Assembly (NCBI GenBank): GCA_035550515.1
Contig: DASZOZ010000135.1
Coordinates: forward strand, 9,355 to 73,354
Direction of reading: 5' to 3'
DNA length: 64,000 nt
DNA from: Stellaceae bacterium
Lineage (GTDB): Bacteria > Pseudomonadota > Alphaproteobacteria > ATCC43930 > CGMCC-115725
Position numbers and translations under genes: made by a program. Positions within the stretch are counted from its first letter, which is position 1. Each line of letters opens with the position of its first letter. The notes beneath the pieces were generated by a model. The model was not told where the DNA came from. It was given only the letters and a program-made list of their open reading frames with translations, and searched no databases. Below, piece by piece: positions 9,113-63,871 of the stretch.

Positions 9113-10683
9113 GCCCCACCCCGCGCCTTCCCGCCAACGCGCCCTTTTCGTCGGCGCAGCGCGCCTGGCTCGACGGCTATATCGCCTGCCTCTTTGCCGA
9201 CGATACGGAACCGTTCGCGCGCATCCCGGCGCCGCTGCCCGAGCCGCCGGCAGAGGCCGAGGACCTGCCCTGGCACGATCCGCTGCTGCCGCTCGACGAG
9301 CGGCTGGCGCTGGCCGAGGGATGCGCGCCGCAACACCGGCTGATGGCGGCGATGGCCCAGCTCGACTGCGGGCAATGCGGCTATTTCTGCGACACCTACG
9401 CCGCGGCGATCTACAGTGGCACCGAGACGTCGCTAAGCCGCTGCGTGCCGGGCGGCAAGGCGACGTCGCGCGTCCTCAAGGCGATATGCGCCGACCTGGC
9501 CGCGCCGGCGGCGGCCAGGCTTGCGGTGCCCGCCGCACCCCTGTCGCCATCGGCAGCGCGGGAGACCAGACCCGCCGAGCACCGGCGGGCGCGGCTGCGG
9601 CACGCGGCGCCGCTGCACGCCGCTGGTGCAGAGAAGGACACGCGCCACGTCGTGCTCGAAGCCGCCGACGGCGTGCTCGACTACCAAGCCGGCGACAGTC
9701 TCGGCATCGTCGCCCGCAACGATCCGGGCCTTGTCGCGGCGGTCATCGAGCGGCTCGGCGCGGCGCCGGATACCGCCGTTCGATCGCCGGACGGCGTCGA
9801 ACGGCCGCTCGCCGAAGCGCTGAGCGATTCGTGCGAGATCCGCCGGGTCTCCGACCAGGCGATCGAGGTGCTGGCGTCGCGCGCGCATGACCGCGACGAG
9901 TCGCGCGTGCTGCAGGCGATGGCGGAAGGCTACCCCGGCGTCGGGCCGGACAATGCCGACCTGCTCGACCTGCTCGACGCCTTCCCCTCGGCGCGGCCGC
10001 CGCTGTCCGAGCTGATCTCCGCCCTCGACCCGCTGCTGCCGCGGCTTTATTCGATCGCCTCGTCGCCGAAGGCCAACCCCGGAGAAGTGCATCTCGCGGT
10101 CGGCGTGGTGCGCTACCGGCTGCGCGCCCGCGAGCGCGGCGGCGTCGCCTCCACCTTTCTCAGCGACCGGCTGGCCGCGGGCGACACGGTGTCCGTCTAC
10201 GTCAACCCGTCCGAAGGGTTCCGTCTGCCGACGCCGGACAAGCCGGTGATCATGATCGGGCCGGGCACCGGCATCGCGCCGTTCCGCGCGTTTCTCGAAG
10301 AGCGCCGCGCGGTCGGCGCCAAGGGCCGCAACTGGCTGTTCTTCGGCAACCCGAAGCGGGCCTGCGACTTCCTGTTCGAAGACGAGCTGGCGGGCTGGCG
10401 CCGCGACGGGCTGTTGACCCGGCTCGATACCGCCTTCTCGCGCGACCAGGCGCACAAGATCTACGTCCAGCACCGGATGCTGGAAAGCGCGGCCGAGCTA
10501 TGGGCGTGGCTCGAAGACGGCGCGCATCTCTATGTCTGCGGCGACGCGGCGCGGATGGCGCGCGATGTCGATCGCGGCCTGGCCTACATCGTCGCCAAGC
10601 AGGGCCGTCTCGATGCGGCCGGCGCCAAGGCCTATCTCGCCCGCCTCACCCGCGACGGCCGCTATCAGCGCGACGTCTACTGA
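9109..10683 (+). CDS. Sulfite-reductase-alpha-like flavoprotein (FAD/NAD(P)H ferredoxin-reductase module, no FMN domain)
   Basis: The C-terminal part RLYSIASSP...[12 protein letters not shown]...YVCGDA...RYQRDVY is the CysJ/CPR FNR-like module. The N-terminal 130 aa is a non-flavodoxin region with [12 protein letters not shown] overlap with nirA. Confidence 0.8.
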
Positions 10684-59737: not shown

Positions 59738-61057
59738 GTGAAGCTTGCGACGGTCGTTGCGCTGATCGTGAGCCTGCTGACGGTCTCGGCCCTTGCCGAT
59801 GGCGGCGATACCGCGAAAACCGCCGGCGATCTCGTCAAGAAGGGCCAATACGGCCAGGCCCAGCTCCTGTACCAGCGACTGATCGATGCCGCCGGCCGGG
59901 ATGCGGACCGGGGGCCGGTTCTGATTGCACGGGCCGACGCCTATTTCGCCGCCGGCGAATACGGCAAAGCCCAAGCCGCCTTGGCCGCCGCTCGCGCGTT
60001 GCCGCTCGGCGCGGAATTGACAAAACGCGCCGACGTGCTTTCCGACAAGATCGCCGACAAGCTCTCCTGGCAGCGTTTCGAAGCCTCGGCGACGATGAGC
60101 CTGGTGCACGATACGCATGTCCGCCACCGCGTGCGGGTCGTCTCCAGCGCCAATGGCACCGAGATCATCGAGATTTGCGACGACGAACCGAGCTTTGACG
60201 ATTTCGACGACGGCCCGAGCGTCATCACCAGCGAAAATTGCTATTACGAGGAGGTCACCGGCGACAGCAAGGCGTCGACGCAAAATATCAACATCGCCGA
60301 CTGGCAATTCCAAACCGCGAGCAAGGTCGAGCATCAGTTTCCGCTCGACAGCCGCGGCAGCTACTGGCGAACCGTCGCGGAGCTGACGCAAAGCTGGCAG
60401 GTTATCGCCGCCGACCAGGACAACCGGGTGATCCGGGCACGGACCGGCCCCAGCTGGTTCGAGCCCGATTGGCAGGCCCGCTTCGACCTTAATCTCGGCT
60501 ACCTGACCGGCCGGCAAAACCACGTGACAAACCTGCAATACCTCGCGCCGATGGCTGCCTGGGAATGGCGGCCCATGCCGAACCTGAGGCTGAACTCGAA
60601 TTATCAATACGAGTCGCGCCGCGCGTTCCCGAGCCAGCAGAACGGCCACGCGAACCTAGTCGATACGCAATTGCGCTGGGACATGACACCCGTCGACACG
60701 GTCGTCGGCCGCACCCTGCTGCGCGAGCAGGTCGCGCAGTTCGCCTACAATTCCTATCGCAGTGAGGAACTGCGCGCGGGATATCGCCGCGGGTTCAAGT
60801 GGTGGTTTGGGCTCGGCGGCGGCTTCGCCGAGGCGGAATTGCGGGCGCGCTTCTCCCAGTTCTATGGCGCGGCGCCGAGCGATAGCGGCCTCACCCGCCG
60901 GGATGTCATCCCGACCGGGCTGCTCGTCCTCGGGCAGGAATTCGGCAAGGCCTGGACGGTAAAAATTTCGTGCTCCTACAATGAGGTCGATTCCTCGGTG
61001 GTCCGTTATAACCGCGACGATTTCCAGTACTACCTGGCCGTGACGCGCAAGTTTTGA
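59738..61057 (+). CDS. Outer-membrane beta-barrel protein with an N-terminal TPR-like region (Slam/DUF560-like)
   Basis: Signal peptide MKLATVVALIVSLLTVSALA, a helical Ala-rich ~100 aa, an acidic linker, then alternating beta-strand-like sequence ending in the aromatic terminus YYLAVTRKF. Family assignment is tentative. Confidence 0.5.
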   Translation: MKLATVVALIVSLLTVSALADGGDTAKTAGDLVKKGQYGQAQLLYQRLIDAAGRDADRGPVLIARADAYFAAGEYGKAQAALAAARALPLGAELTKRADVLSDKIADKLSWQRFEASATMSLVHDTHVRHRVRVVSSANGTEIIEICDDEPSFDDFDDGPSVITSENCYYEEVTGDSKASTQNINIADWQFQTASKVEHQFPLDSRGSYWRTVAELTQSWQVIAADQDNRVIRARTGPSWFEPDWQARFDLNLGYLTGRQNHVTNLQYLAPMAAWEWRPMPNLRLNSNYQYESRRAFPSQQNGHANLVDTQLRWDMTPVDTVVGRTLLREQVAQFAYNSYRSEELRAGYRRGFKWWFGLGGGFAEAELRARFSQFYGAAPSDSGLTRRDVIPTGLLVLGQEFGKAWTVKISCSYNEVDSSVVRYNRDDFQYYLAVTRKF

Positions 61058-61132: not shown

Positions 61133-61209
61133 CGGAGTGTAGCTCAGCCTGGTAGAGCACTGCTTTCGGGAGGCAGGGGCCGGAGGTTCAAATCCTCTCA
61201 CTCCGACCA
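61133..61209 (+). tRNA. tRNA-Pro (anticodon CGG), CCA encoded
   Basis: Folded by hand: acceptor CGGAGTG/CACTCCG, D arm GCTC-AGCCTGGTA-GAGC, anticodon arm CTGCT-TTCGGGA-GGCAG, T arm GGAGG-TTCAAAT-CCTCT, discriminator A plus CCA. 77 nt. Confidence 0.9.
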
Positions 61210-61230
61210 TTTCACCCATGGCCAAACGGC

Positions 61231-61264
61231 AAACGCCCCCGCGGTTCCGGGGGCGTTTGCGTTT
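61231..61264 (+). terminator. Rho-independent terminator after tRNA-Pro
   Basis: The stem aaacgccccc (61231..61240) pairs with gggggcgttt (61249..61258). It is followed by gcgttt. Confidence 0.6.
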
Positions 61265-61321
61265 CCAGGACGAGATAGTGCCCTCTCCCGCAATGCGGGA
61301 GAGGGCGCCTTGCGGACGGCG

Positions 61322-62137
61322 CTATTCCCAGAACGCCATCACGATCTTGTTGTCGGCATCGAGGATCAGGTTGATGCGGTTGGGGTTGTGCACCTGCCCC
61401 TTGACCCCGTGCGTCGGACCGATCGGCCGGAAATCGGGCGGGAGGTCGCCGCCGTAGATAATCCCGGGGCCGGCCTGGCCTTGGCCCTTATCGACAAATT
61501 TCTTGCCGACGCATTCCTTGCAGTCGTTGGTCTTGATCTGCGCCTGCGTGCTGCCGTTCATGCCTTTCAACTCGAGCGCGTTGCCGAAGGCGCGGATGCG
61601 CACCCCCTTGAACGGATGGCCCGCTTCGAGGGTGAAGTCCGCGGCGATCGGCTGGAAGCCCTCGGCCTTTTGCGATTGCTCCGGGCTGGTGGCGATGAAT
61701 TGCAGATCGAGGACGTCATCGGCCGGCTTGCCGTAGAAGAACGGGATGAGCTGCGGGTTGCTCCATCCCGCGGAGCTGACCAGCCCCGTGACGCGAACGA
61801 TGTCGACCTTCGGCTCGAGCGTCGCATGCAGGATCTCGATGCCGGTCACGTAGAGGACCGGCACGTCGAGCGGCCGGTTGCCCCCGGACGGGCCGGCGGC
61901 ATTGTCGTCCTGGCCCGCCTGTTGATAACCGAGCGATCCGCCGCCGCCCGCTGGCGCCGCCGACTGCTGCTGCGCGTAGGCAGTGCCGGTAAAGCTCATG
62001 CCCCCGGCGCCGCCGGCGCCGCCGGAGCCGAACAGGGAAGCGGGGCTGCCGCCGGCCTGTGCAAAGGCACCGCTCGACAAGCCCATCACCAGCGCCAGCA
62101 CACCCACCATGCGCAGTTTGGAATAATTCATGGTCAT
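61322..62137 (-). CDS. Secreted hypothetical protein with a Gly-rich N-terminal linker, last gene of the putative RiPP operon
   Basis: Signal peptide MTMNYSKLRMVGVLALVMGLSSGAFA-Q, a low-complexity Gly/Ala/Gln region, then a ~190-aa globular part. It lies 49 nt downstream of the rSAM gene on the same strand. A 12-bp-stem hairpin (61280..61306) follows the stop. Confidence 0.55.
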   Translation of the reverse strand: MTMNYSKLRMVGVLALVMGLSSGAFAQAGGSPASLFGSGGAGGAGGMSFTGTAYAQQQSAAPAGGGGSLGYQQAGQDDNAAGPSGGNRPLDVPVLYVTGIEILHATLEPKVDIVRVTGLVSSAGWSNPQLIPFFYGKPADDVLDLQFIATSPEQSQKAEGFQPIAADFTLEAGHPFKGVRIRAFGNALELKGMNGSTQAQIKTNDCKECVGKKFVDKGQGQAGPGIIYGGDLPPDFRPIGPTHGVKGQVHNPNRINLILDADNKIVMAFWE

Positions 62138-62186
62138 CCCCATTCTTGAAGTGAATGTCCGTTTCCCGCAGCCGACGCCGTCTCCG

Positions 62187-63344
62187 TCATATCGCCGCCA
62201 TCGTCCGGGCTTCGGCGGCATCGGCCGCCCGTTCCAAGCGGTCGAGCACGAGGTCGGTCGCGCGCATCTTGGTCATCCGGCAATAGGTCGTTTCGGCGGT
62301 CGCGAAGCTGCCGTTCTCGAACAGCTTGTTGACCGGCTCGCCGCCGCCGCAGACGCTGAAATACTCGCAGCTCTCCCGGCATTGCGCGACGCCGGCGTCG
62401 ATGTCGGCCTGCATGCGCTTGAGCAAGGGCCGCTCGGCGAGATCGACCAGCCTGTCGCGGTTGATGTTGCCGAGCACGAAATCGTCATAGACGGCGCTCT
62501 TCAGCCCCAGCAATTCGGGTGAGAACGTGGCGATATTGCCGGTCCAATCCATGCTGGTGATCGCGAACGGCGTCGTCAGTTGGTTGGCGAAGCCGGCTTC
62601 GCGCGGACGGAAAATATTGCGCTGTGCATCGTCGATCTCGCGAATAAACCGGATCCGCTCGGGATGCGCCGCCGACAGGCGCCAGAACTCGCTGAGAAAC
62701 CGGTAATAGGCCTCCTCGATCCCGGCTTGGGCGAAGCTTTCCGAGCGATGCTCGCCCTCGCTCTCCTCGACGTTGAAGCAGACGTGGTCGATGCCCTCGG
62801 CGAGGTAGAAATCGAGCATCTCGTGCGGCGCGGCCAGGCTTTCGGCGGTCAGCACCGAGATCACGTGAAACGGCACGCCGTGCGCCCTCAGCCGGCGGAT
62901 GCCGGCGACGGCCTTGTCGAACGTGCCCCGCCCCGAGCGGGTCACCCGGTTGCGGTCATGCAAATGCGCCGGGCCGTCGATGCTGACCCCGACCGCAACC
63001 CCGGCCTCGGCGATAAACGCGCACCAGGCGTCATCGACCAAGGTGCCGTTGGTCTGGAACGAATGCCTGACCGGAAGCCCGGCCGGGCGCAGTTCCTCGA
63101 TCATCGCGAAGACATCGCGGTAGAACGCGATCGGCAGCACCATCGGCTCGCCGGCGTGCCAGACGACGCTCAGCTCCTCCGCGCACCAGCCCGAGGCGAA
63201 CACCTGGCTGAACAGGTTGACGAGCGTCTCGCGCGCGACGACCGCCTTGTTGGTGCGGTCGGGCAGATAGCAGTAGCGGCAATCGATGTTGCAGAACGGC
63301 GTCGGCTGGACGATCAGCAACTGGATCCGGGGCATGTCTTGCAC
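62187..63344 (-). CDS. Radical SAM/SPASM peptide maturase (GrrM/OscB-like, related to anaerobic sulfatase maturases)
   Basis: The rSAM cluster CNIDCRYC (CX3CX2C) sits at residues ~18-25. The C-terminal auxiliary-cluster Cys motif is CRESCEYFSVCGGG...TTYC. It lies 35 nt downstream of a repeat-rich precursor ORF. The start is GTG 63344 or ATG 63335. Confidence 0.85.
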   Translation of the reverse strand: MQDMPRIQLLIVQPTPFCNIDCRYCYLPDRTNKAVVARETLVNLFSQVFASGWCAEELSVVWHAGEPMVLPIAFYRDVFAMIEELRPAGLPVRHSFQTNGTLVDDAWCAFIAEAGVAVGVSIDGPAHLHDRNRVTRSGRGTFDKAVAGIRRLRAHGVPFHVISVLTAESLAAPHEMLDFYLAEGIDHVCFNVEESEGEHRSESFAQAGIEEAYYRFLSEFWRLSAAHPERIRFIREIDDAQRNIFRPREAGFANQLTTPFAITSMDWTGNIATFSPELLGLKSAVYDDFVLGNINRDRLVDLAERPLLKRMQADIDAGVAQCRESCEYFSVCGGGEPVNKLFENGSFATAETTYCRMTKMRATDLVLDRLERAADAAEARTMAAI

Positions 63345-63379
63345 CGCAGAGCCGCCCGTCGTCCGCCGCCGTGGCCGCG

Positions 63380-63709
63380 TTACCAGTTACGCCACCAGTT
63401 GTTCCAGTTCCGCCAGTTGTGCCAGTTGTTCCAGTTGGGCCAGCCCCAGCCGTAGCCCCAATTGCCCCAGGCCAGCCGGCCGGCGGATTTGGCAGCCTCG
63501 GTCTTGAGCTGGTCGAGCGCGCTGACCGCGTCGCGGACCGCGGCGAGCCGCTCCGAAATCTTCGCCTTCTCGGCCGCCGAAGGCTGATCTCCGGCCGGCG
63601 GCTCGTTGGCCGCCGCGGGAGAAGCTGCGCCAAGCGCCAACGATACCCCCACGGCTCCGGCGGGGGCCAATTGGGTCAGGATGGTCTGGTATTTCAGCCG
63701 CAGCGACAA
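63380..63709 (-). CDS. RiPP precursor peptide: signal peptide + helical leader + Trp/Asn-periodic core (GrrA/OscA-like)
   Basis: It ends ...GRLAWGNWGYGWGWPNWNNWHNWRNWNNWWRNW-stop. The best start is TTG 63709, 5 nt after AAGGAGG, which gives MSLRLKYQTILTQLAPAGAVGVSLALGAASPAAA-NE (Sec-type signal). In-frame ATGs at 63724 and 63754 lack an SD. Confidence 0.75.
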   Translation of the reverse strand: MSLRLKYQTILTQLAPAGAVGVSLALGAASPAAANEPPAGDQPSAAEKAKISERLAAVRDAVSALDQLKTEAAKSAGRLAWGNWGYGWGWPNWNNWHNWRNWNNWWRNW

Positions 63710-63842
63710 TGTTTCCTCCTTCATCGGCGACCGGTGGATCGATTGCCCCGGCATGGCGCCGGGACGATATGGCTAAGGAGCGTGCCCGTCCGAACGCCGG
63801 GCGTTGGTGATACGTTGCGGAAGGACCAACGGTTTCACGCGC

Positions 63843-63871
63843 TCTATAGTCCGGGGAAAAACCTGCGTCAA
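63843..63871 (-). promoter_or_regulatory. Putative sigma70 promoter of the precursor-rSAM operon
   Basis: On the minus strand: TTGACG (63871..63866), 17 nt, TATAGA (63848..63843). This is about 125 nt upstream of the precursor start. Confidence 0.4.

Follow-up and report, generated by a model that had tools for sequence, protein, structure and literature searches.

The radical S-adenosylmethionine (SAM) maturase OscB reportedly accepts diverse Gly-rich precursors. The enzyme (IPR026357) generates triceptides in which C7 of a Trp is reportedly linked to Cβ of an Asn or Asp two residues further on (PMC11002830). The triceptide class is characterised by the combination of a radical SAM enzyme that makes three-residue cyclophanes and a precursor core carrying ω1-X2-X3 motifs (PMC11002830, PMC12912966), and all characterised members are reportedly cut just before the first motif (PMC12912966). 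Bufferins are peptides made on the ribosome and modified after translation (RiPPs) that are exported via the general secretion (Sec) pathway and matured by signal peptidase, and their authors call this signal-peptide feature rare (PMC11626156). Here we describe a cassette found in a 64,000-nt stretch of Stellaceae DNA (positions 9,355 to 73,354 of contig DASZOZ010000135.1, assembly GCA_035550515.1; hereafter the window). It consists of a precursor gene, a radical SAM gene and a third gene, all co-directional on the minus strand and separated by gaps of 35 nt and 49 nt, respectively, and it lies behind the element TTGACG-17-TATAGA, as described in an earlier reading of the same DNA (the original prediction). 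Like the described triceptide systems, the cassette combines a radical SAM enzyme of the cyclophane family with W-x-N core motifs, and it is probably a GrrM/OscB-type triceptide cassette, located on the chromosome of a Stellaceae-like alphaproteobacterium and equipped with an exported precursor and an envelope partner.

The assignment to this family is carried by the enzyme. Translated from its GTG start, the radical SAM gene (62187..63344, minus strand; an alternative ATG start is found at 63335) encodes 385 aa, and the protein matches the NCBIfam model TIGR04261 (GrrM/OscB) with 411 bits against a cutoff of 310 (E 4e-123), residues 12-372 aligning with profile positions 1-363 of 363. All other models remained below their cutoffs, including those of AmcB (NF041718; second best, 310 bits versus 425), DynA (NF041298; 161 versus 450), DarE (NF038005; 100 versus 650) and XyeB (78 versus 450). 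On this sequence evidence the protein is a member of the GrrM/OscB family and would act as a cyclophane-forming maturase. The likeness to GrrM/OscB put forward in the original prediction is thus borne out over the full length of the model, and the accessions given there are right, TIGR04261 denoting the GrrM/OscB maturase and TIGR04260 the GrrA/OscA1 precursor. The Pfam model Radical_SAM likewise matches the enzyme; the SPASM model (PF13186) does not, and the same applies to nearly all GrrM homologues listed. The sequence CNIDCRYC and a C-terminal Cys cluster, CRESCEYFSVCGGG...YC, had been singled out from the window alone, and both are retained in relatives: Cys 18, 22, 25, 322, 326, 332 and 355, as well as Cys 108 and 189, are kept in 96-100% of 74 orthologues, and the combination C18/C22/C25 with C322-x3-C326-x5-C332...C355 is present in at least 97% of them. 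As the CX3CX2C motif begins at residue 18, there is no room for an N-terminal RiPP recognition element domain. Sequence comparison with the PDB returned the triceptide synthase ChlB among the relatives, next to a sulfatase maturase considered below. The GrrM family is large, the Nostoc enzyme matching 3,161 proteins at E ≤ 1e-30, and an exact look-up of the window protein returned no record.

The precursor is encoded in an open reading frame (ORF; 63380..63754, minus strand) whose C-terminus reads ...RLAWGNWGYGWGWPNWNNWHNWRNWNNWWRNW. Across 18 aligned relatives the AGGAGGA core of the Shine-Dalgarno sequence AAGGAGGA (63714..63721, minus strand) is invariant, the leading base being A in 14 of them, and the position 5 nt after it is TTG in 17 and GTG in one. 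Conversely, four relatives have ATA or ATC in place of the in-frame ATG at 63724, and conservation is likewise lacking for the ATG at 63754. Translation is consequently assigned to TTG 63709, which yields a protein of 109 aa, in agreement with the many database homologues of exactly this length. The original prediction had proposed some 110-124 aa with an extremely aromatic C-terminus; the Trp-rich end stands, but the length does not.

Three parts can be distinguished in the 109-aa precursor (63380..63709, minus strand), which is GrrA-like without being Gly-rich. Residues 1-34 (63608..63709) comprise a basic n-region, (M)SLRLKY, a 21-residue uncharged stretch, TILTQLAPAGAVGVSLALGAA, and the sequence SPAAA before NE. 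This layout of n-, h- and c-regions ending in AxA (small residues at -3 and -1) and followed by an acidic or polar residue is kept in 116 precursors, and by inspection the segment is a putative secretion signal peptide. It is followed by the leader (residues 35-80, 63470..63607) with the helix ISERLAAVRDAVSAL, part of a strongly conserved motif, SERLAA[IV]RDAVS, in which R, L and A are invariant in the alignment. Leader-like helices are found elsewhere in the family, namely ARLETIRQSV in Phaeobacter, QRILNLRKAV in Nostoc and TRVLQLYDLAV in Nodularia. The core, WGNWGYGWGWPNWNNWHNWRNWNNWWRNW, occupies residues 81-109 (63383..63469) and carries seven W-x-N triplets. Counted over the last 33 residues there are 11 Trp, the seven triplets lying at positions 5, 14, 17, 20, 23, 26 and 30, and five Gly but no GG spacers; W-G-W and W-W also occur, and the C-terminal residue is aromatic. 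The figure of up to seven contiguous macrocycles in the original prediction is hence matched in the number of motifs, but only five of these, WPN WNN WHN WRN WNN, are strictly contiguous. No second Trp/Asn-rich precursor stretch was found in a six-frame scan of the whole window.

Conservation of the precursor, a point on which the original prediction had made itself depend, is evident from 347 database homologues and, in a scan restricted to one genome per species, from 117 loci. Against seven gap-free orthologues the ratio of non-synonymous to synonymous substitution rates (dN/dS) is 0.12-0.32 at dS 0.6-1.3, corresponding to purifying selection, and judged from this substitution pattern the precursor is a real gene. 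In the relatives the core keeps its W and the i+2 N unchanged, whereas R, N, G, H and P alternate at the position between them (WRN 314, WNN 176, WGN 145, WHN 115 and WPN 87 triplets in 116 relatives). This is the pattern expected if the core were an aromatic-x-Asn modification motif. Such a motif is not new: as OscB is reported to cross-link Trp to Asn at i+2, W-x-N was already a known motif of that family (PMC11002830), and the novelty originally claimed for the W-x-N core was overstated, the more so as public annotation pipelines already name enzymes of this kind.

The composition of the cassette was compared over 81 fetched loci, which stem without exception from uncultured Alphaproteobacteria or Stellaceae metagenome-assembled genomes. 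Precursor, enzyme and third gene occur in the same order in 75 of the 81, so that the neighbourhood comparison suggested with the original prediction finds both the W-x-N precursor and the 61322..62137 protein accompanying the enzyme; precursor and enzyme are adjacent in 77. Two of the remaining loci are cut by contig ends, and in the other four (L010, L018, L019 and L074) the precursor is present as an orphan second copy. Neither a radical SAM gene nor a partner gene is found within 8 kb of these orphans, which occupy a second genomic site, and two of them come from genomes that also hold a complete cassette (OY970069.1 and CAVZCJ01). The order glyoxalase-DUF1467-tag is found upstream in 64 of the 81 loci, and the cassette, occupying the same chromosomal place, is therefore regarded as vertically inherited across the family. 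About 42 loci (within L020-L077) contain two tandem precursors, one of the contiguous W-x-N type and one with GGWRNGG repeats (for instance L054:7507-7854 and L054:7959-8357); the window and its closest relatives have the contiguous type only. The flanks hold housekeeping genes, and no protease, exporter or recognisable immunity gene is found within 10 kb in any of the 81 loci. Their absence had been remarked upon in the original prediction, which overlooked the precursor's signal peptide; a precursor carrying its own signal peptide would account for the missing protease and exporter.

The third gene (61322..62137, minus strand) encodes a protein of 271 aa that does open with a signal peptide, as originally described (62060..62137, ending ...GAFA before Q). 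A Gly/Ala/Gln-rich linker (residues 27-87, 61877..62059), a β domain (61523..61876) and a C-terminal domain (61325..61522) follow. There are 660 close homologues, and within 1.84 billion proteins the family accounts for 257 clusters at 50% identity, all of them unnamed. An initial AlphaFold2 (AF2) model of the full-length protein reached a mean pLDDT (predicted local distance difference test) of 57, making a fold search meaningless, and was superseded by a model restricted to the mature part, for which a diverse 75-sequence alignment was used (pLDDT 94.3, predicted template modelling (TM) score 0.88). The top Foldseek matches of this model in the PDB are all potato-inhibitor-I/I78 proteins and cover the C-terminal ~65 residues, with AFUEI in first place (3w0d_A; probability 0.98, TM 0.56, root-mean-square deviation 2.7 Å, E 0.14), followed by CI-2 and eglin c, with E-values of ~0.1-0.3 overall. 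The Pfam model Inhibitor_I78 (PF11720) touches 10 of 32 diverse relatives at E ≤ 1 (best E 2.3e-5). As modelled, the C-terminal domain appears I78/CI-2-like, at the level of fold only. A C-x-x-C pair (residues 206 and 209, in NDCKECVGKKF) is located at the domain junction and kept in 92% of orthologues; possible roles are those of a disulfide in the periplasm and of a redox or metal site. Five proteins of 565-708 aa (P0249, P0255, P0267, P0274 and P0285) contain 4-5 tandem copies of the β domain, again with no Pfam match in these multi-domain relatives, and the domain is therefore a reusable module outside the cassette.

A tblastn search of plasmids turned up genes annotated as grrM in Phaeobacter, Nostoc, Streptomyces and Bacillus; the same type of search with a Gly-rich precursor gave no match. 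On plasmids of Phaeobacter piscinae and P. inhibens (NZ_CP010716.1 and three others) a grrM gene 43% identical to the window enzyme is preceded by two genes. One of these encodes a 114-aa "hypothetical protein" with a signal peptide ending ...LSAANA before S, the helix ARLETIRQSV and the core WLNSWSNWNNWSNWYKPWHNFSNYSWGNW; the other encodes a 220-aa secreted protein that aligns with the profile of the third protein over both domains (hhalign probability 98.1%, E 7e-14). No published characterisation of the Phaeobacter grrM locus was found. The grrM loci of Nostoc and Nodularia contain short, non-Gly-rich precursors without a signal peptide, as well as other tailoring genes, and no homologue of the partner. 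Export is consequently not obligatory for the GrrM family, and the three-part export-type cassette represents a distinct alphaproteobacterial variant of this large family. Another protein of ~262-286 aa, without Pfam match, adjoins grrM in Nostoc, Nodularia and Streptomyces (L083:3593-4441, L086:7453-8313 and L084:3062-3850). It carries the C-terminal motif LKIxPNEAYIAPxENIIHDGST in the two cyanobacteria and the related QAYVAPTELLVHDGST in Streptomyces. This protein has the appearance of a further conserved accessory of the GrrM family and is missing from the alphaproteobacterial cassette.

Taken together, the following sequence of events can be proposed. The precursor would be translated from TTG 63709 and its leader helix recognised in the cytoplasm by the radical SAM maturase. 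Via 5′-deoxyadenosyl radical chemistry, the enzyme would then join each Trp ring, at position C7 by analogy with OscB, to Cβ of the Asn two residues on. Up to seven three-residue cyclophanes could form in this manner, each lowering the mass by 2 Da, and the five lying back to back would turn the 29-residue core into a stiff aromatic rod. The modified peptide would be exported through the general secretion pathway by its own N-terminal signal peptide, and signal peptidase I would cut after AAA34, leaving a peptide of ~75 aa that retains the leader helix. The third protein, co-transcribed but exported separately, may bind, protect or present this peptide and in such a way act on or with it in the periplasm or envelope. 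Since twin arginines occur in only ~6 of 116 precursors, Sec is the likelier route; Tat (twin-arginine translocation) export was considered on account of an n-region, R-Q-K-Y-L-K, that resembles RRxFLK, and set aside, the twin arginine also being absent in Phaeobacter. A physiological, envelope-associated role is favoured over that of an antibiotic on two grounds, the single conserved site on the chromosome throughout the family and the lack of an immunity gene. The product could accordingly be pictured, tentatively and well short of an even chance, not as a small natural product but as an exported, cyclophane-stapled mini-protein of ~75 aa, composed of the leader helix and a rigid Trp/Asn rod, in a functional periplasmic or envelope complex with its two-domain partner, encoded by a vertically inherited physiological module of Stellaceae that is also found in Phaeobacter.

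Several observations weigh against this proposal. The enzyme is at best ~41-43% identical to the annotated GrrMs with which it was compared. Both the regiochemistry, Trp-C7 to Asn-Cβ, and the ring count have been carried over from OscB by extrapolation, and it is a further extrapolation that spacer-free motifs would be processed by an enzyme family characterised on Gly-spaced ones. The window precursor, which lacks a Pfam or NCBIfam match of its own, gives no match to TIGR04260 even at E ≤ 10 (cutoff 31 bits). The Gly-rich precursors of sister loci pass this model with 45 and 55 bits, and the window precursor shares its N-terminal segment and the SERLAAIRDAVS helix with these tandem paralogues; it is therefore regarded as a divergent, non-Gly-rich relative of GrrA, the median number of Gly being 8 in contiguous-type cores versus 15 in cores of the WRNGG type. 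The export step is the least certain part of the mechanism: the signal peptide of the precursor was assigned by eye, and the authors of the bufferin study caution that SecY may accept macrocyclic peptides only poorly (PMC11626156), although three-residue rings are small. Cutting before the first motif is reported for all characterised triceptides, yet no protease is linked to the cassette. The window partner itself falls below every Pfam threshold (gathering score 23.6 bits for PF11720), its β domain has no Foldseek match in the PDB, and its role in the cassette is something that we purely infer.

The proposal of an envelope-associated peptide competes first with that of a diffusible bioactive triceptide, an antibiotic or a signal, whose leader would be trimmed just before the first W-x-N by an unlinked protease, leaving the short poly-cyclophane as the active molecule, and for which the third protein would serve as immunity factor or carrier. 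In its favour, trimming before the first motif is reported for every characterised triceptide (PMC12912966), the core ends in an aromatic residue, and the related enzymes DarE and DynA, the models of which match the window enzyme weakly, make antibiotics that target BamA. Moreover, a partner with an inhibitor fold could regulate the processing protease or protect the producer. Still, the neighbourhoods of the 81 loci, extending 10 kb, hold no protease, exporter or recognisable immunity gene, vertical inheritance at a single site across more than 100 species would be unusual for clusters engaged in warfare, and the signal peptide of the precursor would deliver the product into the periplasm of the producer itself. 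We consider a diffusible product unlikely.

The N-terminal hydrophobic segment might alternatively be part of the recognition leader or an uncleaved anchor, in which case the peptide would be cytoplasmic or tethered to the membrane. The TIGR04260 match of the Gly-rich paralogues begins inside this segment, at profile position 11, which makes it conserved family sequence, and the cyanobacterial GrrM precursors examined do without it. Against such a function stands the classical arrangement of n-, h- and c-regions with AxA, kept throughout the 116 sequences, and in Phaeobacter a precursor of different sequence shows the same layout, with LSAANA before S. The partner protein, too, is secreted. 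A cleaved signal peptide is hence the preferred assignment, and retention of the segment appears rather improbable.

Returning to the predicted Trp-Asn cyclophanes, the spacer-free core might instead be subject to other chemistry; for example, it could receive ether or Trp-Trp links of the daropeptide type or C-N links, or have its Asn oxidised. The modest identity of the enzyme to other annotated GrrMs leaves scope for this, ether, C-N and aminomalonate products are made by related enzymes of the superfamily, and the core contains W-G-W and W-W besides its triplets. However, GrrM/OscB is the best and only model above cutoff, the conservation falls on W and N(i+2), the signature of an ω-x-N motif, and the W-x-W of daropeptides is not the conserved periodicity. 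Consequently, a different type of link is judged quite improbable, and we retain the Trp-Asn cyclophane as the expected modification. That the enzyme is an anaerobic sulfatase-maturating enzyme (anSME), as the original prediction allowed, with the Trp-rich ORF merely incidental, is effectively refuted, for although the solved structure nearest to it in sequence is that of an anSME (4k37, E 2e-21) and TIGR03942 gives a partial score, this score amounts to 171 bits against a cutoff of 349, other anSME models score lower still, no sulfatase gene lies nearby in the window or in the 81 loci, and the Trp-rich gene is the constant neighbour of the enzyme.

The promoter-like element (63843..63871, minus strand) consists of TTGACG (63866..63871), a 17-nt spacer and TATAGA (63843..63848); it is kept as TTGACGC-N16/17-CTATAG in 18 aligned relatives within otherwise variable intergenic sequence, and judged from this conservation it is likely to be the promoter of the cassette. 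A strict consensus promoter scan does not list the element because the last base of its -10 hexamer is A. The upstream boundary of the cassette is the 3′ end of tag, a housekeeping gene for DNA-3-methyladenine glycosylase I, whose TGA stop codon is overlapped by the -35 hexamer, so that the cassette promoter begins within the end of a housekeeping gene. Between promoter and start codon, just upstream of the Shine-Dalgarno sequence, lies the near-invariant block ACCGGTCGCCGAT (63722..63734), with a GTCG core identical in 18 of 18 relatives. Pairing of this block with a portion of the Shine-Dalgarno sequence is predicted, and there is no covariation, since nothing varies. A regulatory RNA in the ~130-nt 5′ untranslated region was considered and rejected: Rfam yields tRNA-Pro only, and RNAalifold on 17 relatives gives -3.3 kcal/mol with almost no covariation.

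At the opposite end, a 12-bp GC-rich hairpin lacking a U-tract (61280..61306, minus strand) directly follows the third gene. The 101-nt region at this position folds at -61.7 kcal/mol (z = -6.1), and the hairpin is likely the transcript end, even if a terminator scan does not report it. A second strong hairpin (61225..61263), between the cassette and a tRNA-Pro gene, is probably a bidirectional terminator. The window, like 21 relatives, has the tRNA-Pro(CGG) gene (61133..61209, plus strand) immediately downstream of its cassette; five more relatives (L015, L026, L038, L054 and L060) show only partial tRNA-Pro matches of 45-49 nt, which would fit integration of mobile DNA at that tRNA. Further on, between ispB and tRNA-Pro, lies an ORF of 439 aa (59738..61057, plus strand) with a signal peptide, weak N-terminal matches to tetratricopeptide repeats and a C-terminus, ...VTRKF, of outer-membrane-protein-like appearance. 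None of the 81 related loci contains this ORF, which therefore looks like a local insertion.

What is new in this locus is the spacer-free core that fails the GrrA model, the proposed signal-peptide export route, the conserved, uncharacterised secreted partner and the inheritance as part of the core genome. Should the proposed modification be correct, up to seven cyclophanes within 29 residues, five of them without spacers, would constitute a stringent test of the stapling density attainable by GrrM/OscB enzymes, and the system would be a source of very rigid aromatic peptide scaffolds. To our knowledge, the natural functions of triceptides are largely unknown. The pairing of a signal-peptide precursor with a conserved secreted partner, together with the presence of the cassette at one site across a mostly uncultured family of soil Alphaproteobacteria, points to a physiological role for such products, and the Phaeobacter plasmid cassette, residing in cultured and genetically tractable strains, makes this question directly testable. 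If the product is indeed a mini-protein, radical-SAM cyclophane chemistry would serve to build secreted protein structure by way of the general secretion pathway, in conjunction with a new partner family in which an unmatched β domain is fused to an inhibitor-like fold.

In relation to described proteins and systems, the C-terminal ~65 residues of the partner appear to adopt, in a high-confidence model, the fold of I78 and potato inhibitor I proteins (AFUEI 3w0d, CI-2 and eglin c), a likeness at the level of fold; unlike these proteins, the partner carries the fused β domain. AmcB, which forms a cyclophane and aminomalonate, belongs to the same three-residue cyclophane superfamily, but the window enzyme is not an AmcB equivalog. 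The daropeptide maturases DarE and DynA are similarly related radical SAM/SPASM enzymes acting on Trp-rich cores with an aromatic C-terminus, whereas the window cassette is set apart by its W-x-N rather than W-x-W periodicity, by scores far below the respective cutoffs and by the absence of transporter genes. [quoted passage not shown] The OscB/OscA and GrrM/GrrA systems (Nguyen et al. 2020, Nat Chem, and Purushothaman et al. 2024, ACS Chem Biol, as cited in PMC11002830 and PMC11851443) correspond to the window in the family model of the enzyme, the adjacent precursor with helical leader and the repeated ω-x-N motifs. In contrast to them, the window core is not Gly-rich, five of its motifs are spacer-free, and the precursor fails the GrrA model; in addition, the cassette includes a conserved gene for a secreted partner, has no protease or tailoring genes and is a core-genome locus of an alphaproteobacterial family rather than a cyanobacterial cluster. 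The Phaeobacter locus differs from the window in its gene order, partner-precursor-enzyme, its location on a plasmid and its very divergent sequences, but it has the same set of parts: a secreted two-domain protein, a signal-peptide precursor with an RLxxIR leader and a spacer-free core, and a GrrM enzyme.

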